The notes under the pieces are model-generated. The model had not been told where the DNA came from, searched no databases, and saw nothing but the letters and a program-made list of their open reading frames with translations. From an uncultured bacterium (GTDB taxonomy: Bacteria; GCA-001730085), in NCBI GenBank assembly GCA_964565945.1, contig CAZMGY010000012.1:90001-122000 (forward strand): a stretch of 32,000 nucleotides of DNA, read 5' to 3'. Of this stretch, positions 3,492 to 23,194 are shown piece after piece; position 1 is the stretch's first letter, and each line of letters opens with the position of its first letter. The translations under genes and the position numbers were made by a program.

Positions 3492-4394
3492 ATGTGTGCA
3501 CATGAGTTCAAAACACAAATAGGTGGTGTAAATCCTGTCCCTCTCAAAGAAGGGGGTGGAGATCCTTGCTTGGTGGTTGTTTCTGGGCCGAACTTGGGGG
3601 AGGTTTTTCCTTTATCGCAATCTCCTGTCGAAATAGGCCGTAATGAAGACGCTGACATTATTTGCGATGATCCGCTTATTTCGCGCAAACATGCGCAAAT
3701 TATCAAAAATCTAGAAGCTCAGTGGAGGCTGATCGATATGCATAGCACCAACGGGACCTATTTGAATTTTCAAAGAGTTGAGAGTTTGCCTTTGCACAGT
3801 GGTGACAAAATCAGCATTGGCAAAACCATTTTTAAATTTTTAGATCGCGATAGCATCGAAACAACTTTTCATGACGAACTATACACTTTATCGACGATGG
3901 ATGGACTAACGCAAATTTATCGTAGATCTCGTTTCGAAGAGTTGTTAGAAAAAGCCATGCAAGGGGCACGCAATGGATATGGTCAGTTGGCCCTCTGCAT
4001 GATAGATATTGATCATTTTAAAAAAATTAACGATACTTATGGGCATCAAGCAGGTGACTATGTTTTACGAAGGATCACCTCGGTGATTAAACAGGTGATT
4101 AGACGCGAGGACATTTTTGCACGTTATGGTGGAGAGGAGTTTTGTTTGCTTCTCGTTAATAAAACCCTGCAAGAAGGGGTTTTAGTGGCCCAAAAAGTCC
4201 GTCAGACGGTTGAAAACCATGTGTTTGAGTTTGAGGGAGAAACGATTACTGTGACTGTCAGCATTGGTGTATTTTCCTTTGAGTCTCAGCTGGAATCCAC
4301 AGAAAAGTTTTTGGCACGAGCCGATGAAAAACTCTATCAGGCAAAACATGAAGGGCGTAATTGCGTTTGCTATGAAGAAGAACTGGAATCATGA
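3492..4394 (+). CDS. FHA-domain / GGDEF-domain diguanylate cyclase
   Basis: N-terminal FHA signature (IGRNEDADIICDDPLISRKHAQI...STNGTYLN...GDKISIG). C-terminal GGDEF domain (DIDHFKKINDTYGHQAGD, RYGGEEF at 4122-4142). I-site RRED at 4101-4112, five residues before GGEEF. SD AGGGGA precedes the ATG. Confidence 0.85.
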   Translation: MCAHEFKTQIGGVNPVPLKEGGGDPCLVVVSGPNLGEVFPLSQSPVEIGRNEDADIICDDPLISRKHAQIIKNLEAQWRLIDMHSTNGTYLNFQRVESLPLHSGDKISIGKTIFKFLDRDSIETTFHDELYTLSTMDGLTQIYRRSRFEELLEKAMQGARNGYGQLALCMIDIDHFKKINDTYGHQAGDYVLRRITSVIKQVIRREDIFARYGGEEFCLLLVNKTLQEGVLVAQKVRQTVENHVFEFEGETITVTVSIGVFSFESQLESTEKFLARADEKLYQAKHEGRNCVCYEEELES

Positions 4395-5365: not shown

Positions 5366-7450
5366 ATGGAAACCATTAAATTTAATCTTGGTGGTAAAGA
5401 AGTTTCAATAGAAACGGGACGGATTGCAAAACAGGCCAACGGTGCTGTGCTTGTCTGTTCTGGAGAAACGGTTGTGATGGTGACGGCGTGTGCCACGGAT
5501 GAAGCTAAAGAAGGAGCTAGGTTTTTTCCTCTAACTGTTGATTATCGTGAAAAAACTTATGCTGCTGGGCGTATTCCTGGTGGTTTTTTCAAAAGAGAAG
5601 CTCGGCCAACGGAAAAGGAAATTTTGGTCATGCGTCTGACGGATCGACCGTTGCGCCCCATGTTTCCCGAGCACTATTTGAATGAAGTTCAGATTATGTC
5701 TCAGGTGTTATCCTATGATGGCAGTGAGACTCCTGATATTTTATCAATCATTGGTGCTTCAGCGGCTTTGACTATTTCGGATATTCCTTTGCAAGAAAGC
5801 ATTGGAGCCGTGCGTGTTGGTTATGTTGACGGTCAGTATGTAATCAATCCGACAATGGAACAAGTCAAAAAAAGTGAGCTTGATCTGGTTATGGCTGGAA
5901 CTGCGGATGCTATCACGATGGTCGAAGGTGGATCCAATGAGCTAACGGAAGATCAAATCCTTGAAGGTTTAAGGCTTGGACACGAAGCGATTAAACCGAT
6001 TGTGGAAGCTCAAAATGAATTGGCATCGCGTTGTGGCAACCCTAAACGCGTGGTCGCTTCTCCTATGTGGGACGATGCCATCTATGAACAAGTCAAAAAT
6101 CTTTTTGTTCCTAAAGTGGATGAAGCCTTTGAAATTTTTACCAAAAAAGGGCGTGATGAAGTTATTTTCGAAGGTAAGCAAGCCGTTAAAGATAATTTGA
6201 TTGCCGAAGATGATAAGTCAGATAAAATTGCTATGCTTGGTGAGATGTTTTACAAAATTGAGAAAACCCGTACGCGTGAACTAATGTTCGAAAAGCAACG
6301 TCGTGCCGATGGACGTATGTTTGATGAAATCAGACCAATTGCCACCGAGATCTCGGTGTTGCCTCGTACACATGGTTCGGCTTTGTTCACACGTGGTGAG
6401 ACCCAGGCTCTCGTAACGGTCACTTTAGGTTCTGTGACCGATGAGCAAATGATTGATGGTTTGGATGGATTAACCAAAGAGAAGTTTTTGTTGCATTACA
6501 ATTTTCCTCCTTTTTCGGTGGGTGAGTGTAAGCCTATTCGCTCGATCAGCCGTCGTGAGATTGGTCATGGTTACTTAGCCAAACGTGCTCTAGAATTTGT
6601 GAACGCCGATCACCAAGATTTTCCTTACACCATTCGTATTGTTTCGGAGATCACTGAATCGAATGGCTCTTCTTCGATGGCGTCTGTTTGCGGTGGTTCA
6701 ATGGCCCTTATGGATGCGGGGGTACCTGTTAAAAGTATGGTCAGTGGTATTGCGATGGGACTGATCAAAAACGATCTAGGTGTGATTGTTCTTTCAGATA
6801 TTCTTGGATCGGAGGATCACTTGGGTGACATGGATTTTAAAGTTGCAGGAACCTCTAAAGGAATCACTGCTTTTCAAATGGATATTAAAGTCAAAGGTAT
6901 CAGTTTCGATATTATGCGCACTGCTCTCGAGCAAGCTAATGTGGGACGGAGTCATATTCTTAACAAAATGCAAGAGACAATCCAGGCTCCGAGCCAACAA
7001 TTATCTAAGTATGCTCCTAAAATTGTTAGCTTGATGATTCCTGTTGATAAAATCAGAGATGTGATTGGTCCAGGAGGCAAGGTGATTAAGGGCATTATTG
7101 AACGCACAGGTGTTGCGATGAACGTCGCAGATGACGGCTCTGTTGTGATTGCGAGTTCGGATGAAGCTGCTCTTGATGAAGCTAGTCAATTTGTCCAAAA
7201 GTTGGTTGAAATTCCCAAAATTGGTAAAACTTATGAATCGAAAGTGGTTAAAATTATGGATTTTGGTGCTTTTGTTGAGTTTTTGCCTGGCAAAGAAGGT
7301 TTAGTCCATATCTCTCAAATTGCTAACAAACGTATTGAGCGTGTCGAAGATGTTCTTTCAGAAGGGGATATCGTCCAAGCTAAGTTGATTGATATTGACA
7401 AGATGGGACGCAAATCGCTGAGCATTAAAGTTGCTTTAGAAGACAAATAA
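5366..7450 (+). CDS. pnp: Polyribonucleotide nucleotidyltransferase (PNPase)
   Basis: 694 aa with two RNase PH-like domains (FFPLTVDYREKTYAAGRIPGGFFKREARP; RTHGSALFTRGETQAL; ESNGSSSMASVCGGSMALMDAGVP; LGDMDFKVAGT). C-terminal KH (IRDVIGPGGKVIKGI) and S1 (GAFVEFLPGKEGLVHISQI) domains. Sits immediately after rpsO, the classic arrangement. Confidence 0.95.
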   Translation: METIKFNLGGKEVSIETGRIAKQANGAVLVCSGETVVMVTACATDEAKEGARFFPLTVDYREKTYAAGRIPGGFFKREARPTEKEILVMRLTDRPLRPMFPEHYLNEVQIMSQVLSYDGSETPDILSIIGASAALTISDIPLQESIGAVRVGYVDGQYVINPTMEQVKKSELDLVMAGTADAITMVEGGSNELTEDQILEGLRLGHEAIKPIVEAQNELASRCGNPKRVVASPMWDDAIYEQVKNLFVPKVDEAFEIFTKKGRDEVIFEGKQAVKDNLIAEDDKSDKIAMLGEMFYKIEKTRTRELMFEKQRRADGRMFDEIRPIATEISVLPRTHGSALFTRGETQALVTVTLGSVTDEQMIDGLDGLTKEKFLLHYNFPPFSVGECKPIRSISRREIGHGYLAKRALEFVNADHQDFPYTIRIVSEITESNGSSSMASVCGGSMALMDAGVPVKSMVSGIAMGLIKNDLGVIVLSDILGSEDHLGDMDFKVAGTSKGITAFQMDIKVKGISFDIMRTALEQANVGRSHILNKMQETIQAPSQQLSKYAPKIVSLMIPVDKIRDVIGPGGKVIKGIIERTGVAMNVADDGSVVIASSDEAALDEASQFVQKLVEIPKIGKTYESKVVKIMDFGAFVEFLPGKEGLVHISQIANKRIERVEDVLSEGDIVQAKLIDIDKMGRKSLSIKVALEDK

Positions 7451-7458
7451 GTTTTTCT

Positions 7459-8217
7459 ATGTCCTATCTACAGGCATTAATTTCGGGTTGTTTGCAAGGC
7501 ATAGCTGAGTTTTTACCTGTCAGTAGTTCGGGTCATTTGATCTTATTACAAAACTATTGGTCTTTAGCAAGTAATCAAGATCACGTTCTGTTTGATCTTT
7601 TACTACATCTGGGAACCTTGTGTCCTATTGTGTGTGTGTTTCGCGTTCAACTTCTTCAAGAACTCCGATCTTTGCAATTGCCCCGAATGGTTTTGTGCAG
7701 TATGGTGCCCACAATTTTGATTGCTCTTGTTCTCACGCAGTTTCGGGTTTTGTTTACTCAGTCCTGGATGGTGGGTTTGATGCTATGTCTGAATGCATCT
7801 ATTTTGTGGTTGGGGCATCGCTTGAGTCTTAAAAATCATGAAGAGTCTTTTTCTCTCACAAAGGCACTGCTGATTGGGGTGGCTCAAGGTTTTGCGGTTA
7901 TTCCTGGATTGTCTCGTTCGGGGATGACGATTTGCATGGCTTTGGGTCTTAAAATGAAACTCCAGCAAACCTTTTTCTATTCGTTTGCTTTGGCGATTCC
8001 TACGATTATCTTAGCGTTTAGTTATGAGCTTTTGAAGCACCACGCGACTTTAAGCATGATGGATTATCGTGTTCTGTTGCTTGGCTTTATTTCGTCTGCC
8101 TTGGTGGGGTGGGCAAGTTTGGAAGTTTTTAGGCGGCTATTTACCGCTAAACACTTAGATTTTTTTGCGATATACTGTATAGTAATGGGGCTAATAACTT
8201 TGGTGCGCTCCTCCTAG
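7459..8217 (+). CDS. uppP: Undecaprenyl-diphosphate phosphatase (BacA/UppP)
   Basis: N-terminal LQGIAEFLPVSSSGHL motif and the second conserved motif PGLSRSGMTI. Polytopic hydrophobic profile, 252 aa. Confidence 0.9.
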   Translation: MSYLQALISGCLQGIAEFLPVSSSGHLILLQNYWSLASNQDHVLFDLLLHLGTLCPIVCVFRVQLLQELRSLQLPRMVLCSMVPTILIALVLTQFRVLFTQSWMVGLMLCLNASILWLGHRLSLKNHEESFSLTKALLIGVAQGFAVIPGLSRSGMTICMALGLKMKLQQTFFYSFALAIPTIILAFSYELLKHHATLSMMDYRVLLLGFISSALVGWASLEVFRRLFTAKHLDFFAIYCIVMGLITLVRSS

Positions 8218-8245
8218 CCTAAGGTTCTATGTTAAGTAAAGGGTT

Positions 8246-10570
8246 GTGTGGATGTTTGATAAAGAACTTTCTTATCGAACGAAAGATATCTTTCGTTTAC
8301 TGTTTGGAGCTTTTGCACTTTTTGTTTCCTTTAGTTTTCTATCATTTGATGTGAATGATATCCCTTGGTTGACCACCGAGCTCAACCGTCCTTTGCAAAA
8401 CTACACAGGTGTTGTCGGTGCTTATATGGCTTTTTATGGTCGCTTTTTATTTGGAGATGCGATTTGGGCTATCCCATTGTTGCTCGTGTGTTGGGTGATT
8501 AACAGTACAAAAATAAACACTTATGGCGAGATTTATAAAGAATTTTTAGGAGCTTTTTTTGTTTTATTAACATTGTCGGCCATGCTTTCATTGCACGAAG
8601 ATAGTTTGTCGAGCTTTCTGTTCAAAGGAGGTTTGGTGGGACCTCAAATTGCTGGTTTGTTTATGAGCTCTTTTAGTTATTTGGGATCTATTCTGATTTT
8701 GGGTTTGTTTTTGATTTTGTCTTTGGCTTTGGCAACAGAGTTTTTAATGGTCTCGGCTGTTGTGATTGGAGGGTGCTACCTTGTTCAGGGGCTTCATAAA
8801 GCTGGAACCTGGTTGGTTTCGAAAATGAAATGGTTGCGTTTGAGGCGCAGAGCCTCTACTGAGGAGGATGAAGAAGAATACGAATACGAGTATAAAGAAG
8901 AGAGACATGTGGAGAAAGAATCCGAAGAAGAAAATAAAGAAGAGATTGCCCCGACCGAGAAGCCTTGGTTAAGGATTGTTAAGCCTGTTAAGAAAAAAAC
9001 GAAACAAAAGCGTAAGCCTCCGAAACTTGAGTTTTACGATGGTGAATTGCCTCCAATTAATTTATTGGAAACAAGCGAGGGGACAACGGATGATGGTCAA
9101 AAACGAACTGAGAATATCGAAGAAACGACACGTATTTTGGGAGAAACACTCAAAAGTTTTGATATTGTCGCTGAAGTGGTTGCCGTTAACCAAGGGCCTG
9201 TGATCACGGTTTATGAGGTTCAGCCTGCACCTGGAGTGAAGATTAATCGCATCGTTAATTTGTCAAACGATATTGCCTTGTCGCTAAGCGCGCCATCGGT
9301 CAGAATTGTAGCACCTATTCCAGGTAAGTCGGTGATAGGGATTGAAATTCCAAATAAATTTCCCGAAAAGGTTTATTTTAGAGATTTGATTGAGTCGGAT
9401 GAATTTCAAGACGCTACCAGCAAGTTGTCAATTGTTTTGGGCAAAGATGTGGCGGGTGATCCTATGGTGAATGCTCTGGAGACAATGCCACATCTCTTGA
9501 TAGCGGGTTCGACAGGTTCGGGAAAAACAGTGTGTCTGAATGCTTTGATTATGAGTGTGTTGTACAAGTCCTCTCCCGACGAAGTTAAAATGATTATGGT
9601 TGACCCTAAAATGGTCGAGATGACATTTTACAATGGCATTCCGCATTTGTTGACACCTGTGATTACTAACCCTCGCAAAGCCGCTGACGCACTTATTTGG
9701 GTGGTTTCGGAGATGGAACGTCGCTATGAGCATTTTTCTGATGTTGGTGTTCGCAATATTACGGGTTATCACAAGCGCTTTGAAAATTCAAAAGATAAAA
9801 CTTATAAGTCTAAAAATGGTGAAGAAAAATCTTTGGAAAAAATGCCTTACATTGTCGTGTTCATTGATGAGTTGGCGGATTTAATGATGACTGTTGCTCA
9901 AGATGTGGAAACATCGATTTGTCGTTTGGCGCAGTTATCAAGAGCGGTGGGGATTCATTTGATTATTGCAACCCAACGTCCTTCGGTGAATGTGTTAACA
10001 GGTTTGATCAAATCGAACTTACCTTGCCGTATTTCGTTTCGAGTGGCCTCAAGTATTGATTCTCGCACCATTTTAGATTCCAAGGGAGCTGAGAAGCTTA
10101 TTGGTAAAGGGGATATGTTGTTTATTCCTCCAGGTTTGTCCTCTATGTTGAGGGCACAAGGTTGCTTTTTGGCCGATGAAGAAATTCGGGATGTGGTTGA
10201 TTTTCTTAAAAAGCAGCGAGAGCCAGAGTTTGTTAATATCTTTGCTTCGGCCAAAGCTGTGATTGAATCGAGTGATCGCGATGACTTGTACGAAAAGGCC
10301 GTTAGGCTTGTAATTGAATCGGAGCAAGCTTCGGCGTCTTTTTTACAACGACGCATGCGAATAGGCTATAATAGAGCGTCTCGTCTGATTGATGCGATGG
10401 AGGAAGAAGGTATTATTAGTGCTTCGTGCGGAAGCAAATCTCGGAAAGTTTTGGTTGACTCATATGATTTTTCCGTTGACAACTTTTTGAAGTCCGCTGA
10501 AGCCGACTATGATGCTTATGACAATGATCCTGGAAAAACTGACGAGGAAAAGCCTGAGTATGAAAAATAA
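8246..10570 (+). CDS. ftsK: DNA translocase FtsK/SpoIIIE
   Basis: N-terminal multi-TM region, then an acidic/basic low-complexity linker (EEDEEEYEYEYKEE...KKKTKQKRKPPK). Motor domain has Walker A GSTGSGKT (about 9505-9528) and Walker B VVFIDELADL. C-terminal gamma winged helix (SASFLQRRMRIGYNRASRLIDAMEEEGIIS). The start could be the GTG at 8246 or the ATG at 8252. Confidence 0.9.
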   Translation: MWMFDKELSYRTKDIFRLLFGAFALFVSFSFLSFDVNDIPWLTTELNRPLQNYTGVVGAYMAFYGRFLFGDAIWAIPLLLVCWVINSTKINTYGEIYKEFLGAFFVLLTLSAMLSLHEDSLSSFLFKGGLVGPQIAGLFMSSFSYLGSILILGLFLILSLALATEFLMVSAVVIGGCYLVQGLHKAGTWLVSKMKWLRLRRRASTEEDEEEYEYEYKEERHVEKESEEENKEEIAPTEKPWLRIVKPVKKKTKQKRKPPKLEFYDGELPPINLLETSEGTTDDGQKRTENIEETTRILGETLKSFDIVAEVVAVNQGPVITVYEVQPAPGVKINRIVNLSNDIALSLSAPSVRIVAPIPGKSVIGIEIPNKFPEKVYFRDLIESDEFQDATSKLSIVLGKDVAGDPMVNALETMPHLLIAGSTGSGKTVCLNALIMSVLYKSSPDEVKMIMVDPKMVEMTFYNGIPHLLTPVITNPRKAADALIWVVSEMERRYEHFSDVGVRNITGYHKRFENSKDKTYKSKNGEEKSLEKMPYIVVFIDELADLMMTVAQDVETSICRLAQLSRAVGIHLIIATQRPSVNVLTGLIKSNLPCRISFRVASSIDSRTILDSKGAEKLIGKGDMLFIPPGLSSMLRAQGCFLADEEIRDVVDFLKKQREPEFVNIFASAKAVIESSDRDDLYEKAVRLVIESEQASASFLQRRMRIGYNRASRLIDAMEEEGIISASCGSKSRKVLVDSYDFSVDNFLKSAEADYDAYDNDPGKTDEEKPEYEK

Positions 10571-10588
10571 TATAGGGTTAAAAATAGA

Positions 10589-11404
10589 ATGGTAGGGATA
10601 GGTGAGAAACTTCGCAAATCGCGAGAAGCTCAAGAGTTGTCCTTAGAGCTTATTAGCCGTAAAACTAACCTTAAAAAAGATTTTATTTTAGCTTTAGAAG
10701 ACGAGGATTTTTCTCAATTACCCACGATGATTCATGCCAAAGGTTTTCTAAAGACTTACGTTCAATTCCTTAATTTGAATGCAGATGATATTCTTAAATC
10801 TTTTGATGATCTGGTGGAGCAATCTTTTCGCACAGAGCTTGCGTCAAAAATTCGTTTATCCAGCGAGGCTAGACCTAAGTTAACCTGGATTGATGTGAGA
10901 AACGAGTTTTTTCAGTATTTGTCGTACAGTCAAGACAAAATTAAATTTTTTATTGTGGGGACTATTGTTTTGATTGTGGCTTATTATGGATTGTCGTGGG
11001 GATACCAAAAGGCTAGACCCTTTGTCAACTCTTGGGGGGGGTGGGTCAGTTCTTTGTGGACTTCCTCCAAGAATGCAGAACCATCGGAACAAGCTAATGT
11101 ATCTGAGGTAGTGGATCAAGAAGTTCCTCAAACGCAGCCTGTTTTGGAGCAATTGTTGTTGCAGGTTGATGTGAAAAAGTCCGTTTGGATGTCGTTAACA
11201 GCGGATGGCAATGTTTTGTATGAAGGTGTTATGCAAAAAGGCATGAATGAAATCTGGAAAGCTGAGGATGAGATTGTCATTCGAATCGGTGATGCCAAAG
11301 GTGTGGACTTTTTATTGAATGGACAGGCGATAGAAGAGCTTGAAGAGATGGAGCAAAAAGTATCACGGATTCGTATAACCCCAAAGGGAATTGAATTTCG
11401 ATGA
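10589..11404 (+). CDS. rodZ: RodZ-like cytoskeleton-associated protein (XRE-type HTH + TM + DUF4115-like C-terminus)
   Basis: N-terminal HTH (GEKLRKSREAQELSLELISRKTNLKKDFILALEDEDFSQLP). Single TM (FFIVGTIVLIVAYYGL). C-terminal beta-rich domain (VWMSLTADGNVLYEGVMQKG...IRIGDAKGVDFLLNG). Located directly upstream of pgsA, as ymfM/rodZ is in Bacillus subtilis. Confidence 0.7.
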   Translation: MVGIGEKLRKSREAQELSLELISRKTNLKKDFILALEDEDFSQLPTMIHAKGFLKTYVQFLNLNADDILKSFDDLVEQSFRTELASKIRLSSEARPKLTWIDVRNEFFQYLSYSQDKIKFFIVGTIVLIVAYYGLSWGYQKARPFVNSWGGWVSSLWTSSKNAEPSEQANVSEVVDQEVPQTQPVLEQLLLQVDVKKSVWMSLTADGNVLYEGVMQKGMNEIWKAEDEIVIRIGDAKGVDFLLNGQAIEELEEMEQKVSRIRITPKGIEFR

Positions 11405-11970
11405 ACGGCCCCAATGTTTTGTCTTTGTTAAGAATTGTGATGGCCTTTATTTTTATGGTTTGTGTGCTTATTCCGCAAACATACGCAGCTCTTATGGCTT
11501 TACTTATGTTTGTTTTGGCCTGTGCCACTGATTTTATTGATGGATACTGGGCACGGTCGGCAAAGATCGAGACGAGTTTAGGAGCTTTGTTGGATCCCTT
11601 GGCTGATAAGGTTCTGATTACAGCGGCTCTTGTGACATTTGTAGACTTGGGTTATGTTGTTTCCTGGGTGGTTGTGCTGGTTTTAGCTCGTGAATTTTGT
11701 GTGACTGGCTTAAGGTTGATGGCGATTAAGCAAGGGATTGTTGTTGCGGCATCTGTGTGGGGGAAAATGAAGACCGTTATGCAAATGATGGCTGTGCTGG
11801 TAATTTTATTGTTTCATCTTCAGATCATTTATCAGGCAGAATGGTTGGCTTTTTATCATTTTCGAATGATTATTTACATTGTCACATGGGCAATGTTGCT
11901 GGTAACAGTACTGTCTGGTTGGACGTATGCTGTTGGTTGTAAAAGCTTGTGGACTAAGGAGCTTCGATGA
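11401..11970 (+). CDS. pgsA: CDP-diacylglycerol--glycerol-3-phosphate 3-phosphatidyltransferase
   Basis: CDP-alcohol phosphotransferase motif DFIDGYWARSAKIETSLGALLDPLADKV. Polytopic, 189 aa. Its ATG overlaps the rodZ stop (ATGA at 11401-11404). Confidence 0.85.
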   Translation: MNGPNVLSLLRIVMAFIFMVCVLIPQTYAALMALLMFVLACATDFIDGYWARSAKIETSLGALLDPLADKVLITAALVTFVDLGYVVSWVVVLVLAREFCVTGLRLMAIKQGIVVAASVWGKMKTVMQMMAVLVILLFHLQIIYQAEWLAFYHFRMIIYIVTWAMLLVTVLSGWTYAVGCKSLWTKELR

Positions 11971-12425
11971 AACAAAAATTTGAACATTGTTTGGCATCGT
12001 GGTTTGGCTTAGGTCATGCTCCCGTAGCTTCTGGCACGATTGGCACGCTTGGTGCTGTGCCCCTCTATTGGCTCTATAGTTCGCACACTTTAACCATGTT
12101 GATGTTGCTTGTTATTTTGATCCCTTTAGGGGTGGTGATCTCGAACCGTGTCGTTGACCGTATGGGGGATAAAGATCCATCGATGATTGTGATCGATGAA
12201 GTGGCAGGATTTTTGCTCGCGGTGATTTTCTTTCCCTTCACATGGGTGAACCTTGTTGCTTTGTTTCTTTTATTTCGATTCTTTGATATTGCAAAGTTTT
12301 GGCCCATGAGTGCTTTGGAGCGCTTGCCTCGCGGCTGGGGAGTAATGGCCGATGATTTGGCTGCGGGTATTTTGGCAGCCTTGCTATGGCAGGGAATCAT
12401 TTATGCTTATATCCTTTTGTTCTGA
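11967..12425 (+). CDS. pgpA: Phosphatidylglycerophosphatase A
   Basis: PgpA-family motifs (GLGHAPVASGTIGTLGAVPLYW; DKDPSMIVIDEVAG; FRFFDIAKFWP; GWGVMADDLAAG). Its ATG overlaps the pgsA stop (ATGA at 11967-11970). Confidence 0.85.
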   Translation: MKQKFEHCLASWFGLGHAPVASGTIGTLGAVPLYWLYSSHTLTMLMLLVILIPLGVVISNRVVDRMGDKDPSMIVIDEVAGFLLAVIFFPFTWVNLVALFLLFRFFDIAKFWPMSALERLPRGWGVMADDLAAGILAALLWQGIIYAYILLF

Positions 12426-12627
12426 TCTGATATGGTGCTGTTACTGTGCAGATAGCCGAGGTAAAATGGTTCGGGGTTTATAGAAGTTGACTCAAGCCAA
12501 TCATGTGTGGCTGTGACGGGCATTGTTGGAATCTGGGGGTGGTTCGATTGAGAAGCTGCTAGGAATGGTCACGTTGATGTGATTTGTTTGCGGTCCAAGG
12601 GTGGGAAAAAGCAAATCAAACAGTTAA

Positions 12628-12694
12628 CATGTAATAATATATTGTATATTATTAGAAATTTATTAAAAAATATTGAATAATATTTTATTACATG
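12628..12694. repeat. Nested AT-rich inverted repeats (operator-like) upstream of the giant gene
   Basis: Three repeats:
- Outer IR: CATGTAATAATATATT (12628-12643) against AATATTTTATTACATG (12679-12694), 15 of 16 complementary.
- Inner perfect 10-bp IR: TAATAATATA-ttg-TATATTATTA (12632-12654).
- 8-bp IR: AAAATATT-gaat-AATATTTT (12667-12686). Confidence 0.7.
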
Positions 12695-12701
12695 CTATTA
12701 T
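12673..12701 (+). promoter_or_regulatory. Predicted sigma70-type promoter of the 1622-aa protein gene
   Basis: TTGAAT (12673-12678), 17-nt spacer, TATTAT (12696-12701), about 55 nt upstream of the ATG at 12756. It overlaps the right arms of the palindromes. Pattern match only. Confidence 0.4.
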
Positions 12702-12755
12702 TAAGGGTTGGCGAGGGGTTGTTAGGACAACTAATAAGGTCAAAAGGAGTAGTTT

Positions 12756-15700
12756 ATGAGATCCCTTTTTTCGAGATGGTGGGTGATACTTTTTAGTGCA
12801 ATGTCACTTTTTGTGGTCACGCCAACCTCTCAGGTTCATGCCAGTTTCTGGTCGGACGTAGGCGACTTTTTTACCCAGGATATTCCTGATTTTTTTAAAA
12901 ACATTTTTATACCTTCGACAACTTCTAATGGTCAAAACAATACTTTCCTGTTTCCTGATATTATTGATGAGGCTTCGGGGCCAGATGGATTTCATGTGGT
13001 GAATTTATCGGGCGATCGTGATCGCGATGGTATTGTTCATTTGAAGTGGAACACCAAAAAATTTAGTGGTACGCGTGCTAAGTGTTACCAAATTGTTGTG
13101 CTTGGGCGTCATAACCTCTTGATCAATAGTCCAATTAGTATCGAACAAGATTATTTTATTAAGCCGATCGAGGTTAACGACGATCCTTCAAGCCAAATTC
13201 AAGAGGTTATCATTGATATTCCAGCCTTGCTTGGACCTGGTTTGAAAGAGGATTTAGGGAACTTTGTCGATTTGCCTCGCGACTTTTTGAATGGTCGCAA
13301 CACAACGCTTTATTTTGCTGTGAAAGCTTCGAAAAATAAAGATCTAGTTGATCCAGATAACTTTGTTTCCGATTTAGATCCCCAGGATAATCGTCAGCGA
13401 TTAGACAGTAATGGGAATCCTAAAGTTCTCACTGTTCCGAACTACACTTTTCTGGGTTCTAAGTTTTCGAATGTCTTGCCTGTTTCATTTGAACTTGATT
13501 CTCCTCCTGATAAGCTCAAATTGCTTTTGGTGAAAAAAACAACTCCTCTTGAAGGACACTGTATTTACACTCCACAGCAGCAGTTGCAAAATTTGACTGT
13601 GACTGTGGGAGATGCCTCCAATTCTCGTGAGCTCAACTTGAATTTAGATGATGAAATTGAGTCGGTTTATATCGATCGAGATGGTATTCTTGATATATGG
13701 TTTGTTAAGGAAAAAGATAATTTGATTCCATCCTTTCCTCAATATCAAATTCAATTTAGTAAATGGCCTAAGTTTACGTTCAATAGGGAGACTGATTTTG
13801 ATCGTGCAGTCGTCAATCGTTATTTTATCCAGGGCGAGAAAACCCACTTTTTATACAATAATTTTGACGATTTTTTCTCTCCAAGTGCTGGGGCTGGCGA
13901 GCTTAAATCTTTGACAAGTGACCGCTATTTCGAGAATGGTCACTTGATTCGTCCATTTCATTCTAAAAATTTGGCTGTGAATGGTTTTGAAAGAGATTCT
14001 CAAGGCAGTTTAGATTTTGGACGTCCGACTTATTTTCAGGACAGCGAGTACGGAGCCGTAAATGGCGTTTACTATATTCGTGCCCGTGCCTTAGGTTTAC
14101 CTAGTCGTGAACTTCGTTTGAATCACGATAATCGTTATGGTGACTGGAGTCGCATCGTAGCCGTTAAGGTTGAGCAAAATCCACGCTTGATGGGCATTCA
14201 TTTCACTGAATCTCCTTTTCAAATTGATCAACGTCGTGCGGAAGCAAAGCGTTTGATTCCGGCAGGTTTGGTTCCAGTCAATTTCCGTTTAGACAACAAG
14301 CAAAATTCACGCAATGCTAGTCAATTGATCTATCAAATTGCGGTTTCTCCTCATGCGGATTTGATTGTGAATCTTGAATCATTCAAAGTGGGGGCCAAAG
14401 AAGGACGTAATTTTGGAGATGAGGTCGTTGCGAATCGTTCGGATTATTTTTTAGACTATGTTTTGCCTGATGCTGTTGCATTGGCACCTAATCCGAATTA
14501 TACAGTGAATATGTTATTCAATTCGGGTGTTGTTCCAGCGGGACGCTACTATCTTTGGATTAGAACTGTGTTGAATGAGCCTGATGCTATTCCTTCTTTG
14601 TGGAGTGCTCCAGTTTCGGTGGATTTGCCACGATTTGAGCAACTGCTGTCGCCAAGACCTGATTTGAAGCCTATCATTGCTAGCATATCTGATCTCAATA
14701 AAGGTTTTGTTCCTTTATCGTGGTCGTTACACGACGTTCAGCCCATAGATCCCCGAAATAGTCAATACACCAACAATCAAGATGGCAATAATATTCACTT
14801 CATTCCATCTTACCAGGTTTTGGTTTATAACCGCGAAGATGTTAACCCTGTCGGAGATGGCGGATATATCAAATTTTGTGATGACAATAGTAATGGCATC
14901 AATGACTGGGTCGAAATTCAGTGCGAAGGTGGTGCTGGGAAGGCCTATTCGACGTACACTGTGACGCCTCAGCAGTTTGAACAAGCATCTGTGGCCGAAA
15001 ATCAGCGCGATGTTTTGTACCGTGTTCCCCTTTTAACGATTCCAGTTGTTCCTGACAAGGACAGTCAAAGCATGTTTGAACAAAGAATTCAGGTGATTGA
15101 ACCAGGCTTATATGATTTTTATGTGATTTCCAATAGAATAACTGGTCATCAAAGCTTGGTGAGTCAGGGGCAGAGCCTTTCAATTTCAACTCGCATTGAA
15201 CCTAGGCCATTACCTCCAAGAACTCAAATAGGGGATGTTGATTTAGGAGATCTTAAAGTGACACATGGACAAATTCCTTTGAATTGGACAATGCAAGCGA
15301 CACCGAGTGATCCAAGAAATGCTGTTTATCGTGAAAAAAGTCTGGAAGAAGGATCTTTACAACGACACATTCCTTTTTATCAGCTACTTATTTATCGCAC
15401 TGATTTTGGACAGAACTTATCCGATGACCAATTGCCTTATGCACGTCGTCGAGTGATTGTGGCTGACTTTGAAGGTGTTGTGCGCCAGCACACGATGCTC
15501 TACAATGATTTGATTTCGCGTGGCTATATTTCTGCGCAGGGGGATGTGTTACCAGCTTTTAGTAATTTAACCTCGACCAATCAGTTTGTGGTGAGTGCCA
15601 GTTTTATGCCTCAAAAGCAACGAATTTACAATATCTTGTGTGTAGCTTATTTTGCTTTGAAAGAGGTGGATGTTAATAAGGACGAGGTGAATAATTTTAC

Positions 15701-17624
15701 CGAAGTTGGATGCGGAGCGTATGCCACGTATATGATTCAAGATAAGGATATTTTGCCAGTACCTACGTCAAAAGAAACCGCGGCAGGTGCTAGAAATGTT
15801 CTCTATTACATTCCTTTGTTAAAAATTTTTAAATCTACGTGCGATGCTGCTGGAAACATTATTCTCGAAAGAAAGATCAAAGCGATTGAACGAGGAAGTT
15901 ACCACATGTTTCTTAGGGCGTTCAATGCTTCGGAAGAGCCTGGGGTATTGAGCCATGTGAGACGTGTCGATATTTCTAATCGGATTGTTCCGATCATTCC
16001 ACCTAAGCCTAACTTAGTACGACCCAATGCGACAGATCGCAATAGCCTTAATGTGAAGGAAAAAGCTCTGATTCCTGTGTCGTGGACTCTTGGAGCTCAA
16101 CAACAATCGCCTCTTGCAAATGCTTATTCTAACAGGGCTCAGTCAACCTATATTCCCTTTTATCGGGTTCTCTTTTACCAGGATCTTCCTGCTGGGCAGT
16201 CTCCGTGCGATGCACAGGGAAATCTTGTCTTCTTGGATGTTGATAAAAATGGGGTGAATGACTGGTTGGAACGTCCTTCGGAAAGTCTCTCAGGTCGCTT
16301 GTTCACAACCTTTTTGGTGACCACTAAACAGCTGGAAAAGATTGCTCAAGAGGAGTTGTTAAAAGCAGAAAATTCTGATGAAACACGCACCACGGTCGAC
16401 TTGCCGTCCTTTTTGGAAATTGACACATTTTACAAACCTAAATTAGCTGCTGATGGGACGCCTTTGATCAATGATGCGGGAAAACTTCAGTTTGAAGCTG
16501 ATTTCCATGAAGTTCCTATTGGTACGTACAGTGTGTTTGTTTTTCCGATTAACCTTATGGAACTCGAAGGGCCCTTGAGTGACCCGAAAACTATTCAAAT
16601 CACTAAACATATCGAAGACATTCAAACGCCGGATCCTTTGCAACTTGATCCTATTACGCCAAATCCTGATCGCAACGGAATTATTGGCTTAAATTGGACT
16701 TTAAAAGGGCGTGATCCGACCGAAAGAGATCGATTGGATTTTTTCCCTCTGTATGAAATAAACATTGCCAAACACAATGCAACGTGGCAGCGCAATACCT
16801 TTGCCGTTGAATATGTCAAAAGTTTGGGAGACTTTCCTTTAATGGTGCCTGTTTCACCGGGTTCAAAGATTTTTCGTAAAGTGAGTAAATGGCCTTGGGT
16901 ACGCAACTTGAACGATCCAGATTTTCCTTTGAATTATAGGCGACTGGGTGAAGTCACTCCTGTCTCAATTGGTTTTGAAAATGATGCGATGTATTATATT
17001 CGTGTGCGTGCCTTGTCTCATGAAGGGCCTGTTGCCAAACGAGGAGAGTGGAGTAATACTGAAGCCGTTCGTGTTGATTTACGCAGCGATATGCTGCATC
17101 CTCCGATTGTTTCTCGGACACAAGGGCCCGAAAGAAATTGGAACTATCAAGATCCTTCTGAGCAAATTATTGTCAACGATCTATTCCTTAAAATTTACGC
17201 GATGTACTATCAGTTTAATCCGCAATTAACGGCTCTGCAAAAACAAGAGTCTCAGATGATTGAAATTTATGAAAGTGAGTCCTCTTTGTTTGAAACGATT
17301 CGCGAAGTGTTTTATTTGGATACCAATCGTACGGAAGCCTTTTCGATTAATGGAGATGAGGTGTTCACTCTTAAACGATCTCCGTTCACAACGGTGGATT
17401 CCAAGCCTGAGTTTGAGGTGCAACGACCTCTTTGGGGCCAAACCTACTATTACAAAGCGCGCTTTATTGGCTTTAATGAAAATTCTCCCGACCGCATGAA
17501 CGACTTGCCTCGAGGACGTTTTGGCAAGACTGTTAGGGTTAATGTCCCCACTGAGGAACCCTCTGGTGCGTCTCCTGGATCTGAAGATCCGCACGATCCT
17601 CGTCAGAAAACCTGGCGCCTCTAA
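12756..17624 (+). CDS. Giant secreted protein (1622 aa) of about 8 diverged Fn3-like beta-sandwich modules; function unknown
   Basis: SD AAGGAG at 12744-12749. Sec signal peptide MRSLFSRWWVILFSAMSLFVVTPTSQVHA|SF. The early strand motif recurs (IVHLKWN, FVPLSWS, IPLNWT, IPVSWT, IGLNWT). The late tyrosine-corner strand also recurs (VYYIRARALG, RYYLWIRTV, LYDFYVISN, SYHMFLRAF, TYSVFVFPI, MYYIRVRALS, TYYYKARFIG). Pro-rich linkers join the modules. No catalytic or anchor motif was recognised. Confidence 0.85.
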   Translation: MRSLFSRWWVILFSAMSLFVVTPTSQVHASFWSDVGDFFTQDIPDFFKNIFIPSTTSNGQNNTFLFPDIIDEASGPDGFHVVNLSGDRDRDGIVHLKWNTKKFSGTRAKCYQIVVLGRHNLLINSPISIEQDYFIKPIEVNDDPSSQIQEVIIDIPALLGPGLKEDLGNFVDLPRDFLNGRNTTLYFAVKASKNKDLVDPDNFVSDLDPQDNRQRLDSNGNPKVLTVPNYTFLGSKFSNVLPVSFELDSPPDKLKLLLVKKTTPLEGHCIYTPQQQLQNLTVTVGDASNSRELNLNLDDEIESVYIDRDGILDIWFVKEKDNLIPSFPQYQIQFSKWPKFTFNRETDFDRAVVNRYFIQGEKTHFLYNNFDDFFSPSAGAGELKSLTSDRYFENGHLIRPFHSKNLAVNGFERDSQGSLDFGRPTYFQDSEYGAVNGVYYIRARALGLPSRELRLNHDNRYGDWSRIVAVKVEQNPRLMGIHFTESPFQIDQRRAEAKRLIPAGLVPVNFRLDNKQNSRNASQLIYQIAVSPHADLIVNLESFKVGAKEGRNFGDEVVANRSDYFLDYVLPDAVALAPNPNYTVNMLFNSGVVPAGRYYLWIRTVLNEPDAIPSLWSAPVSVDLPRFEQLLSPRPDLKPIIASISDLNKGFVPLSWSLHDVQPIDPRNSQYTNNQDGNNIHFIPSYQVLVYNREDVNPVGDGGYIKFCDDNSNGINDWVEIQCEGGAGKAYSTYTVTPQQFEQASVAENQRDVLYRVPLLTIPVVPDKDSQSMFEQRIQVIEPGLYDFYVISNRITGHQSLVSQGQSLSISTRIEPRPLPPRTQIGDVDLGDLKVTHGQIPLNWTMQATPSDPRNAVYREKSLEEGSLQRHIPFYQLLIYRTDFGQNLSDDQLPYARRRVIVADFEGVVRQHTMLYNDLISRGYISAQGDVLPAFSNLTSTNQFVVSASFMPQKQRIYNILCVAYFALKEVDVNKDEVNNFTEVGCGAYATYMIQDKDILPVPTSKETAAGARNVLYYIPLLKIFKSTCDAAGNIILERKIKAIERGSYHMFLRAFNASEEPGVLSHVRRVDISNRIVPIIPPKPNLVRPNATDRNSLNVKEKALIPVSWTLGAQQQSPLANAYSNRAQSTYIPFYRVLFYQDLPAGQSPCDAQGNLVFLDVDKNGVNDWLERPSESLSGRLFTTFLVTTKQLEKIAQEELLKAENSDETRTTVDLPSFLEIDTFYKPKLAADGTPLINDAGKLQFEADFHEVPIGTYSVFVFPINLMELEGPLSDPKTIQITKHIEDIQTPDPLQLDPITPNPDRNGIIGLNWTLKGRDPTERDRLDFFPLYEINIAKHNATWQRNTFAVEYVKSLGDFPLMVPVSPGSKIFRKVSKWPWVRNLNDPDFPLNYRRLGEVTPVSIGFENDAMYYIRVRALSHEGPVAKRGEWSNTEAVRVDLRSDMLHPPIVSRTQGPERNWNYQDPSEQIIVNDLFLKIYAMYYQFNPQLTALQKQESQMIEIYESESSLFETIREVFYLDTNRTEAFSINGDEVFTLKRSPFTTVDSKPEFEVQRPLWGQTYYYKARFIGFNENSPDRMNDLPRGRFGKTVRVNVPTEEPSGASPGSEDPHDPRQKTWRL

Positions 17625-17731: not shown

Positions 17732-18358
17732 ATGCAGTTAGGTCAACGAGGTGTGTCGCTTGTGTCAATATTAGTGACTTTGTCAATTATCCTGATTCTA
17801 ACTGGAATAAGCACATACATGTTTCAATATGCTACGAAAACAGCCAAAAGAGCTTGGTGTGCCAACAACTTAAGACAAATTTATCAGTATTGGCTCTTGT
17901 ATCTCGATGAAAATCATGATCGAATCAGGCGTATTCGTGACTTGCAAGATAGTTCTTTGCCCGAGAAGGGCAGTGGTGTTTATCTTAAAAATGTTTTGGA
18001 GCAGTTTTTGTCACAAAGGGAAAAGCGCCCTATTGATCTAACAGCTATTTTTTCTTGTCCTGCAGACCCTCTACATAACGAGTACGAGCTTAAACATAGC
18101 GGAAGCTATGACAATCGCGATGAGATGTCACGAAGCTATCGCCCCTATGTTTTTTCGGATATTCCCAATCCACAAGATAAAATCCTGATGGGTGATTATC
18201 GTTCTGGCTGGCATGCTATTCCTTTTTTCGGTTTATTTGGTTATGATAGTCAATCAGATAAGGAGCGACGCATTAATGTGCTGTTTGCTGATGGACGTGT
18301 TGAATGGTTGACCGAAAAGGAATGGCAGGATCAGTTACGGCTGCCTTTTTGGGACTAA
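17732..18358 (+). CDS. Pseudopilin-like protein (prepilin-type N-terminal helix, C-terminal DG motif), non-canonical leader
   Basis: The ATG at 17732 is preceded by GGAG. N-terminus MQLGQRG|VSLVSILVTLSIILILTGI resembles a class-III signal peptide (G-1, hydrophobic helix) but has Ser instead of Glu at +5 (17750-17767). The C-terminal NVLFADGRVEWL resembles the H-X9-DG/DUF1559-type pseudopilin tail. Confidence 0.6.
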   Translation: MQLGQRGVSLVSILVTLSIILILTGISTYMFQYATKTAKRAWCANNLRQIYQYWLLYLDENHDRIRRIRDLQDSSLPEKGSGVYLKNVLEQFLSQREKRPIDLTAIFSCPADPLHNEYELKHSGSYDNRDEMSRSYRPYVFSDIPNPQDKILMGDYRSGWHAIPFFGLFGYDSQSDKERRINVLFADGRVEWLTEKEWQDQLRLPFWD

Positions 18359-22255: not shown

Positions 22256-23194
22256 ATGTCTCAGGTTGGAAAAAATCCATTACACAGAGATTATGTTAAG
22301 AAAACAGGGATTTACGCCTTTTTAATTTTGTTGGGTGTAACGATGGTTTTGCCATTTATTTGGATGGTGTCCACCTCCTTAAAGGTTCCTGGGGACGTGT
22401 TCACTTACCCTCCTGAGTGGATTCCTTCTCCGATTGAATTTGGTAACTACATCAAGGCTTGGTTGGCGGTTCCTTTTGGCCGTGGCTATGTGAATAGTAT
22501 TATTGTGGCGGTGGCGACCACCTTGGGCCAAGTGTTCACCTGTTCAATGGCTGCGTTTGCGTTTGCACGTTTGCAGTTTCCTGGTCGGGACAAGCTCTTT
22601 TTTGGGTATTTGGCTACGATGATGATTCCAGGTGATGTGACAATGATTCCTGTCTTTATTTTGCTTAAAAAATTGCCCGAGTGGTTGAATACGGTGTTTA
22701 GTCCTGTTAATCAGTGGTGGTCACAAGACATGTATCTATTTGGTGAGTTTTTTGTTGGCAAACCGATTGGGATTGATTCTTACTTTGCTTTGATTGCTCC
22801 AGGTTTGTTCACCGCTTATGGAACATTCATGTTGCGTCAATTTTTCATGAATATTCCTCGCGATTTGGAAGATGCTGCTAAAATTGATGGTTGTAGTTTA
22901 TTCGGGATTTATTGGCGTGTGATTTTGCCTCTATCCAAAGCGGCTTTGGCGACATTGATCACCTTTACGTTCATGGGCTCTTGGAAGAGCTTTATCTGGC
23001 CTTTGATTGTGACAAATAGCATTGAGTTAAAAGTCTTACCAGTGATGTTGCAAGCGTTTCAGGGATCTTATAACACTGAGTGGACCTTACTGATGGCAGG
23101 TAATATCATCATGTTGATGCCGATCATTTTGGTGTTTATCTTTAATCAGCGTTTCTTTGTCGAAGGGATTCAGCTCGGTGCCGTTAAAGGATAA
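22256..23194 (+). CDS. Carbohydrate ABC transporter permease (MalG/UgpE-like)
   Basis: Polytopic profile. EAA loop (LEDAAKIDGCSLFGIYWRVILPLS). The family-typical N-terminus VLPFIWMVSTSLK is present. Confidence 0.85.
   Translation: MSQVGKNPLHRDYVKKTGIYAFLILLGVTMVLPFIWMVSTSLKVPGDVFTYPPEWIPSPIEFGNYIKAWLAVPFGRGYVNSIIVAVATTLGQVFTCSMAAFAFARLQFPGRDKLFFGYLATMMIPGDVTMIPVFILLKKLPEWLNTVFSPVNQWWSQDMYLFGEFFVGKPIGIDSYFALIAPGLFTAYGTFMLRQFFMNIPRDLEDAAKIDGCSLFGIYWRVILPLSKAALATLITFTFMGSWKSFIWPLIVTNSIELKVLPVMLQAFQGSYNTEWTLLMAGNIIMLMPIILVFIFNQRFFVEGIQLGAVKG

Follow-up and report, generated by a model that had tools for sequence, protein, structure and literature searches.

We read the product of a large gene in an uncultured bacterium, with a probability of about one half, as a fibrillar protein confined to one lineage and located in the cell envelope or at the cell surface: a fibril or adhesin of variable length that works together with a pilin-like partner. 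The gene lies in a 32,000-nucleotide (nt) stretch of contig CAZMGY010000012.1 (assembly GCA_964565945.1, positions 90,001 to 122,000), here called the window, and encodes an exported protein of 1622 amino acids (aa). The sequence family is new and the kind of protein is a familiar one: by predicted fold, it is a chain of eight to nine fibronectin type III (Fn3)-like β-sandwiches with Pro-rich linkers. The coordinates of all features are collected in Table 1.

An earlier note on this DNA, made from the sequence alone, had described a 1622-aa open reading frame (ORF) with a strong Shine-Dalgarno site and a Sec signal, and both signals are indeed in place. The N-terminal signal combines a basic n-region with a hydrophobic core and the predicted signal peptidase site V-H-A/S-F (residues 27-31); according to a 19-residue hydropathy scan the signal peptide is the sole hydrophobic segment of the protein, and signal-like peptides also start those relatives in which the N-terminus is present. 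Regular-expression scans of the large protein found no lipobox Cys, LPXTG, GGxGxD/RTX or PEP motif. The protein is therefore predicted to be exported and soluble, with neither a membrane segment nor a lipid anchor. Pfam (E ≤ 10) returned zero families, NCBIfam and PDB sequence searches gave no meaningful match, and the same three resources returned nothing for any relative or with family profiles; in particular, the fn3 (PF00041), Big and Cadherin sequence models match neither the window protein nor its 10 relatives, and the window protein has no CARDB match. These searches agree with the earlier statement that no catalytic, anchoring or sorting domain is recognizable, and they gave no full-length match to a characterized family.

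The 90% cluster of the window protein comprises eight near-identical variants from several independent assemblies, each of exactly 1622 aa, so the reading frame is maintained. These intact strain variants, together with collinear relatives in at least seven other loci, rule out that the ORF is not a real gene. A phage or mobile origin was also ruled out, by the conserved housekeeping synteny around the gene and its unremarkable G+C content (38.6-43.5% across the large gene vs 33-46% across the window).

Since sequence demonstrates only part of the claim that the protein is an Fn3 chain, AlphaFold models were generated for residues 60-640 and 629-1622 from alignments of 7 and 9 sequences, respectively. 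The mean predicted local distance difference test (pLDDT) scores are 64.7 and 66.0, the predicted TM-scores (pTM) 0.54 and 0.49, and both models are nearly all β. All 23 strand motifs and Pro-rich linkers quoted in the earlier note were found in the order given there, and every B-, F- and G-strand motif among them coincides with a β-strand assigned by DSSP in the models. The Foldseek comparison that the note had proposed returned, for both models, solely tandem FnIII arrays from the PDB (E 1e-9 to 1e-6, best 1.3e-9, probability 1.0), among them insulin receptor, gp130, OSMR, neogenin, leptin receptor and RPTP-sigma as well as fibronectin Fn7B89 and chains of thick filaments; phage Fn3 tail proteins were matched in BFVD, a viral library, with a top E of 2.9e-12. 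The TM-scores of the Foldseek matches are low, because flexible multi-domain chains superpose poorly. By structure comparison the protein, as modelled, belongs to the Fn3-like class, which is defined by a seven-stranded sandwich with a B-strand Trp and an F-strand Tyr corner, and its Trp and Tyr motifs fall on modelled strands. By sequence, a borderline profile match (E 8e-4) to a protein with fn3 and a type IX secretion system (T9SS) tail is the only link of the large protein to Pfam fn3; of the weaker HMMER matches, the one other with a bearing on the fold is to a cadherin-like/Big_9 protein (E 5e-4).

The proposal of about eight Fn3-like modules (M1 to M8) holds by predicted fold, with a change in the count: the strands of M2 fall into two groups and the module is probably double, which gives 8-9 sandwiches. 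In M1, the B-strand IVHLKWN and the F-strand LYFAVKAS fall on predicted strands, and Foldseek finds Fn3 arrays. Conservation within the family is highest in M2, with the motifs YQIQFSKWPKF, RYF, YGA, YYxRxRAxG and DNRYGxWS. M7 is weakly similar to M1 and M2. For M8 the model predicts TYYYKARFIG as the F strand and TVRVNV as the G strand, and GxxYYYxAR and SPD are conserved in the family.

Relatives of the protein are few. A word-indexed search of 5.8 billion proteins recovered only its own cluster and one 38%-identical protein: AB834_02200, annotated as hypothetical, from "PVC group bacterium (ex Bugula neritina AB1)", hereafter AB1_div. The AB1_div genome (1.91 Mb, 34.7% G+C, 96% complete) represents a deep branch within the superphylum of Planctomycetes, Verrucomicrobia and Chlamydiae (PVC) sampled from bryozoan ovicells, with no detectable FtsZ and with peptidoglycan synthesis genes present (PMC5041132). 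HMMER, run exhaustively over 1.84 billion representatives with a two-sequence profile (residues 80-1220), gave ten members or fragments at E ≤ 1e-14, and an eleventh member of 1762 aa was reached via the partner gene. Scans of genome collections returned AB1_div only, and a JGI metagenome scan returned no family member. As far as these searches go, the family is confined to a small, poorly sampled PVC-related clade that includes AB1_div. Full-length members are collinear end to end at 22-43% identity among collinear relatives. The large gene diverges far faster than its neighbours: the protein is 38-40% identical to its AB1_div orthologue (locus L001) vs 74% for PNPase, and about 22% identical to the orthologue in locus L005 vs 52% for PNPase.

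Several of the related loci have irregularities of their own. In L007 (204-10347), the orthologue is spread over four consecutive same-strand ORFs of 672, 248, 1603 and 854 codons, about 3380 aa in total; a break lies inside a module, so that errors of sequencing or assembly in this long-read contig of low coverage may well account for the splits, rather than decay into a pseudogene. For the L005 orthologue (7274-12860), gene calling gives two pieces, 245 and 1619 aa long, with an 11-nt overlap; as M1 and the signal peptide are on the 245-aa piece, the gene probably encodes a single product of about 1860 aa. In L006, an ORF of more than 2325 aa (8719-15693), cut by the contig end and rich in charged residues at its start, directly follows the family member P0010; that it is a paralogue of the large protein was ruled out, as blastp gave no match. 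A nucleotidyltransferase/HEPN pair resembling a toxin-antitoxin system (L008, 6748-7444) lies two genes downstream of member P0005.

The center of the protein is a repeat whose copy number varies among relatives, and M4, M5 and M6 are its three copies in the window. The hhalign probabilities among the three are 99/99/91% (M4-M5 and M4-M6, 99%), and all other module pairs reach at most 53%; clear paralogy at the level of sequence thus has statistical support for these three modules only. Self-BLAST of the whole protein found no repeats, and piecewise BLAST and hhalign were needed. M5 matches the repeat profile in two pieces (jackhmmer, aa 819-892 and 967-1079) on either side of a helical insert that was found only in the window protein and in AB1_div. 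Copies of the M4 type, counted with a jackhmmer profile built within the family, number 3 in the window protein, 3 in AB1_div, 4 in L009, 2 each in P0004, P0005, P0009 and P0010, and about 12 in L007. A stalk repeat that varies in number among relatives (2, 3, 4 and about 12) is a trait of fibrillar adhesins. The first half of M3 in P0004, P0005 and P0008 also matches the M4-type profile (E about 1e-8 to 1e-9). The earlier view of an ancient duplication thus falls short for the central module, whose copy number changes among relatives.

The consensus of the M4-type repeat reads P-x-P ... vPl-W ... ip-Yqv-VY ... f-D-x-N-x-N-g-i-N-D-w-l-E ... GkAYAvY ... G-Y-fy ... S. It includes a 12-residue acidic loop, D-x-N-x-N-g-i-N-D-w-l-E over 24 repeat copies, with EF-hand-like ligand positions 1, 3, 5, 9 and 12. 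Position 8 is Asn, for which reason the loop is better called DxDxDG-type than EF-hand. The weak cadherin-like/Big_9 profile match coincides with the loop part of the profile. From this pattern we infer that the D-x-N-x-N-G-I-N-D-W-x-E loop binds calcium.

On both sides of the variable center the ends are constant, M1-M3 and M7-M8 being present in every full-length family member. The mature N-terminus reads SFWSDVGDFFTQDIPDFF... in the window protein and SFWDDVGNFFTETIPDFFTETIPDFF... in L009, and a repeated (D/E)FF..IP(D/E)FF motif is kept in L009 and L007 and not in more distant relatives. This segment (aa 30-71) is outside the model or at low pLDDT. The Phe/Asp-rich N-terminus might serve as the tip at which the protein acts, or as a peptide with affinity for a membrane or a partner protein. 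At the other end, the tail of about 20 residues contains, in all members with the C-terminus present, a Trp at a distance of 3-8 residues from the terminus (KTWRDAG, AKWRK, GDWREE, HTWRRRSPE, NTWHP, YQWDGSQQDY and SNWQGTE in the relatives), and no known sorting signal resembling this Trp tail was found.

Around the large gene, the window consists of housekeeping and envelope genes in series on one strand; the housekeeping setting had already been noted from the sequence. Upstream lie genes for a helicase, SpoIID/LytB, QueA, a forkhead-associated (FHA)-GGDEF protein and a ComEA-like protein, then an 87-codon ORF (where L001 and L005 have the gene for ribosomal protein S15), PNPase, UppP, FtsK, RodZ, PgsA and PgpA. 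Downstream come the 208-aa partner gene, then PFK, a TPR/SPOR protein, MiaA and a pair of ABC permeases. The succession PgsA(-PgpA), large gene, gene of 196-208 aa, further genes, TPR-SPOR, MiaA, permeases recurs in AB1_div (L001), L005, L007 and L009. The pseudopilin-like gene reported downstream was confirmed, with its ATG 107 nt past the stop codon of the large gene, and the two genes are adjacent in five loci with several kilobases (kb) of context (the window, L001, L005, L007 and L009). No terminator-like site was found in the 107-nt gap, which makes co-transcription plausible.

At the N-terminus of the partner a Gly is followed by a hydrophobic helix (G/VSLVS in the window); two Cys are invariant, and a C-terminal NVLFADG[RH]VE motif is found in all orthologues (NVLFADGRVEW in the window). 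TIGR04294 (H-X9-DG) matches 3/4 partner members with a best E of 3.4e-4, all below cut-off (14.2 bits for the window partner, where 19 would be required); the GspG model matches two members, best E 1.8e-4, below its trusted cut-offs; and PF07596 is faint for the window partner (E 0.0017). Distant matches of the partner profile carry PF07963 or PF07596, are annotated as type II secretion, DUF1559 or H-X9-DG proteins, and come from Scalindua and Chthoniobacteraceae; among the partner copies themselves PF07963 is weak and limited to L007. The prepilin motif G/F-x-x-x-E is absent from the copies of the window, AB1_div, L007 and L009, where position +5 is Ser or Leu, and Glu+5 is kept only in the L005 partner (1/5 loci). 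The Verru_Chthon cassette, in which a large protein A goes with pilin-like proteins B-D (models TIGR02596-TIGR02600), does not account for the pair: the large protein has no NCBIfam match, and the partners reach only E = 0.22 to protein C (TIGR02599).

The large gene probably has a promoter of its own, with nothing more elaborate in evidence. Within the 330-nt spacer upstream, a promoter-like block agrees with 9/12 sigma-70 consensus positions and has TG before its -10 element; the same block aligns in L009 (TTGCAT, 17 nt, TAGGAT) and L007 (TTGATT, 17 nt, TATTAT), and this common occurrence is the reason for assigning a promoter. The "palindrome-laden" control region of the earlier note is real in so far as an inverted repeat with 29-nt arms is present and overlaps this block. 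The repeat is imperfect, its fold as RNA is only marginally better than that of shuffled sequence (z = -2.2), it has no clear sequence conservation with the upstream region of AB1_div, and Rfam gave no RNA family match in the window. A regulatory RNA or operator was therefore rejected, the conserved part being better explained as a promoter.

Table 1. Features of the large gene, its control region and its partner gene (positions within the window)
Feature	Position	Strand	Detail or basis
AT-rich imperfect inverted repeat, 29-nt arms	12625..12697	+	79% complementary
Promoter-like block	12673..12701	+	-35 TTGAAT, 17-nt spacer, TG-extended -10 TATTAT
Shine-Dalgarno site AAGGAG	12744..12749	+	6 nt ahead of ATG, read from sequence
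Large gene, 1622-aa exported multi-Fn3-like protein	12756..17624	+	ORF confirmed; variants and collinear relatives
Sec (signal peptidase I) signal peptide, aa 1-29	12756..12842	+	predicted cleavage VHA/SF
Phe/Asp-rich mature N-terminal segment, aa 30-71 (SFWSDVGDFFTQDIPDFFKNIFIPS...)	12843..12968	+	
Module M1, aa 72-250, Fn3-like with inserts	12969..13505	+	nine strands in model
Module M2, aa 251-476, probably two β-sandwiches	13506..14183	+	14 strands in two groups
Module M3, aa 477-628, Fn3-like	14184..14639	+	seven strands and short helices in model
Module M4, aa 629-816, first copy of 188-aa variable-number repeat	14640..15203	+	hhalign, jackhmmer
Putative DxDxDG / EF-hand-like loop DDNSNGINDWVE, M4	14880..14915	+	
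Module M5, aa 817-1076, second repeat copy with insert	15204..15983	+	hhalign, jackhmmer
M5 helical insert of about 75 aa, aa 893-966	15432-15653	+	helical in model
Putative DxDxDG / EF-hand-like loop DVNKDEVNNFTE, M5	15669-15704	+	
Module M6, aa 1077-1288, third repeat copy	15984..16619	+	hhalign, jackhmmer
Putative DxDxDG / EF-hand-like loop DVDKNGVNDWLE, M6	16236-16271	+	
Module M7, aa 1289-1446, Fn3-like	16620..17093	+	IGLNWT, MYYIRVRALS, AVRVDL on predicted strands
Module M8, aa 1447-1600, β-rich, low model confidence	17094..17555	+	pLDDT mostly <50
C-terminal polar tail, aa 1601-1622	17556..17621	+	ends KTWRL
Partner gene, 208-aa pseudopilin-like protein, putatively of H-X9-DG type	17732..18358	+	GGAG upstream of ATG

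In the working model of a fibril or adhesin, the chain would form a rod after Sec export, tens of nanometres long if fully extended, and the central M4-type modules would serve as a calcium-stiffened extender that sets its length. One of the conserved ends would bind a target, for example the surface of a host or partner cell (the family includes the 1.9-Mb genome of the bryozoan-associated AB1_div). The other end, with the tail, would be held or handled by the pilin-like partner, which may act as an inner-membrane anchor or as part of a pathway, similar to type II secretion or a type IV filament, that would carry the protein across the outer membrane.

Several observations weigh against this fibril model. 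Neither sequence nor fold searches found an adhesive, anchoring or outer-membrane-targeting element in the large protein, and the default destination of a Sec substrate in a diderm cell is the periplasm. In L004, L006 and L008, the more distant loci, the partner gene does not adjoin the large gene and is absent from those contigs, and the 32-kb window has no type II secretion or pilus machinery genes. The structural models are of moderate confidence, with parts of M2 and most of M8 below pLDDT 50 and with low TM-scores, and the acidic loop, with Asn instead of a hydrophobic residue at position 8, breaks canonical EF-hand spacing.

Some of these points fit a structural rod that stays in the periplasm as a scaffold or spacer; on one side of it would be the inner membrane, with the partner helix anchored there, and on the other the peptidoglycan or outer membrane. 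Such a protein would need only the Sec signal, and no recognizable signal for outer-membrane export or anchoring is present. It could also be tied to cell shape or division, as five loci place the gene between FtsK-RodZ-PgsA(-PgpA) and TPR/SPOR, a conserved envelope block, and AB1_div has peptidoglycan synthesis genes without detectable FtsZ (PMC5041132). However, a repeat number of 2 to about 12 shifts the length several-fold, which is hard to fit to a periplasm of fixed width, the divergence is much faster than that of the neighbours, as is typical of exposed proteins, and in L004, L006 and L008 the adjoining genes encode CinA or a class I tRNA synthetase rather than envelope proteins. We regard the periplasmic rod as unlikely, and as the best placed of the alternatives to the fibril or adhesin.

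A more specific proposal concerns the partner: lacking Glu+5, it could be a tip-type subunit in a fibre that resembles a type IV filament and by which the Fn3 rod is carried or released. The pair would then be a minimal two-gene "pilin-presented fibril". This we hold to be improbable; if true, it would be the first concrete job for a member of the H-X9-DG/DUF1559 family of PVC bacteria. The chances are slimmer still that the protein is a subunit of an S-layer or surface coat that self-assembles into a calcium-dependent lattice over the cell. The all-β multi-domain build with putative calcium loops, the rapid divergence and the dedicated conserved promoter would suit such a coat, but no S-layer, SLH or known cell-wall-binding domain appeared in the Pfam and NCBIfam searches, and a stalk-like repeat of variable number fits a fibre better than a lattice. 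Least probable by our estimate is a soluble type II secretion substrate in which M2 is a cryptic carbohydrate-binding module or enzyme, with the Fn3 modules serving as spacers, as they do in many glycoside hydrolases: no other region is as conserved as M2, which also contains the longest low-confidence stretch of the model, and the adjoining gene is pseudopilin-like, but even family profiles have no Pfam, NCBIfam or PDB sequence matches, Foldseek gives only Fn3 arrays for the half that contains M2, and beyond aromatic and structural positions no conserved residues of a catalytic type are conspicuous.

Should the fibril or adhesin model be right, the protein would be the main fibre, for attachment or of the envelope, in a PVC-related lineage with small genomes that has barely been sampled and is at least once animal-associated. 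The feature most worth following is the conserved pairing with the Glu+5-less, putatively H-X9-DG-type pseudopilin-like gene, a small and tractable two-gene case for the role of the very large H-X9-DG family of PVC bacteria. The modules are also a clean example of Fn3-like domains invisible to sequence models, useful for domain libraries. General concepts are unchanged, as large exported β-sandwich repeat proteins without known anchoring are common.

Other parts of the neighbourhood have features of their own. A gene of 143-146 aa without family matches follows the partner in L007 (11020-11460), L009 (6451-6882) and L010 (2852-3283); PFK occupies this position in the window. Three diguanylate cyclase (GGDEF) genes lie within the 32 kb (3492-4394 on the + strand, 23888-25087 and 25075-26508 on the - strand), one of them fused to FHA, and the minus-strand pair is also found downstream in L009. 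Cyclic-di-GMP often controls the display of adhesins. A 244-codon ORF (23157-23891, +) has no NCBIfam or Pfam match, and a gene of similar size (246 aa) is in the same position in L009, after the ABC permeases; a 135-codon ORF (30255-30662, +) has no NCBIfam match. The GC skew is positive (0.06-0.30) over positions 1-26000, along the + strand genes, and about zero from 27 kb (27000-30000). Gene orientation switches at about 23.9 kb, and the block at 30-31 kb has the lowest G+C of the window (33%).

Among known systems, the best structural matches are the FnIII ectodomains of insulin receptor, gp130 and fibronectin, and insulin receptor FnIII shares even a large internal insert; at 8-11% identity this is a likeness of fold only, from which neither shared function nor shared ancestry can be argued. 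Another comparison is with the PilY1/PilC tip adhesins, which minor pilins present, and the GspK-capped pseudopilus, where a large exported protein is likewise found beside a pilin-like gene and a putative calcium loop is present. The partner resembles tip subunits such as GspK, the tip pseudopilin of type II secretion, in lacking Glu+5. In contrast, neither sequence nor fold relates the large protein to the PilY1 β-propeller, and there is a single pilin-like gene here instead of a minor-pilin operon, with no pilus machinery in the window.

A precedent within the PVC superphylum comes from Omnitrophota, in which giant attachment-type genes lie beside type II secretion-like loci (preprint 10.1101/2023.11.21.568195). 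Small genomes, large repeat-rich exported proteins near pilin-like genes and a proposed role in attachment are common to both cases. The Omnitrophota proteins, however, are 10-50 times larger, have transmembrane regions and SecA-like or dockerin-type domains, and their genes follow a secretion locus of more than 10 genes (10.1101/2023.11.21.568195), and nothing of the kind is seen here; HMMER detected no homology between them and the large protein among the 1.84 billion representatives. With this precedent, and with large secreted Fn3- and immunoglobulin-repeat proteins being very common in bacteria, the word "undescribed" that the earlier note applied to the system was too strong.

The nearest known kinds of protein are the fibrillar adhesins, in which a stalk of repeated immunoglobulin- or Fn3-like domains is combined with an adhesive tip and an anchor, and the calcium-rigidified repeat adhesins of the LapA, SiiE and MpIBP type, which leave the cell by type I secretion. 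With the former, the large protein shares its size and export, tandem β-sandwich modules, a stalk of variable repeats between conserved ends, and fast divergence. It differs from them in having no known adhesive domain by sequence or fold beyond the Fn3-like modules, no LPXTG, autotransporter barrel, T9SS C-terminal domain, PEP-CTERM, lipobox or transmembrane anchor, and modules that escape the Pfam fn3, Big and Cadherin models. With LapA, SiiE and MpIBP it has in common an extender of β-sandwich repeats, each with an acidic putative calcium site, and diguanylate cyclase genes nearby; unlike them, it has an N-terminal Sec signal, lacks both GGxGxD RTX repeats and a type I signal region at the C-terminus, and is not adjoined by ABC/MFP/TolC genes. 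As the anchor, adhesive-domain and secretion features of fibrillar and calcium-rigidified adhesins were not found, the large protein is not a member of either group; by analogy, it may at most work like them.

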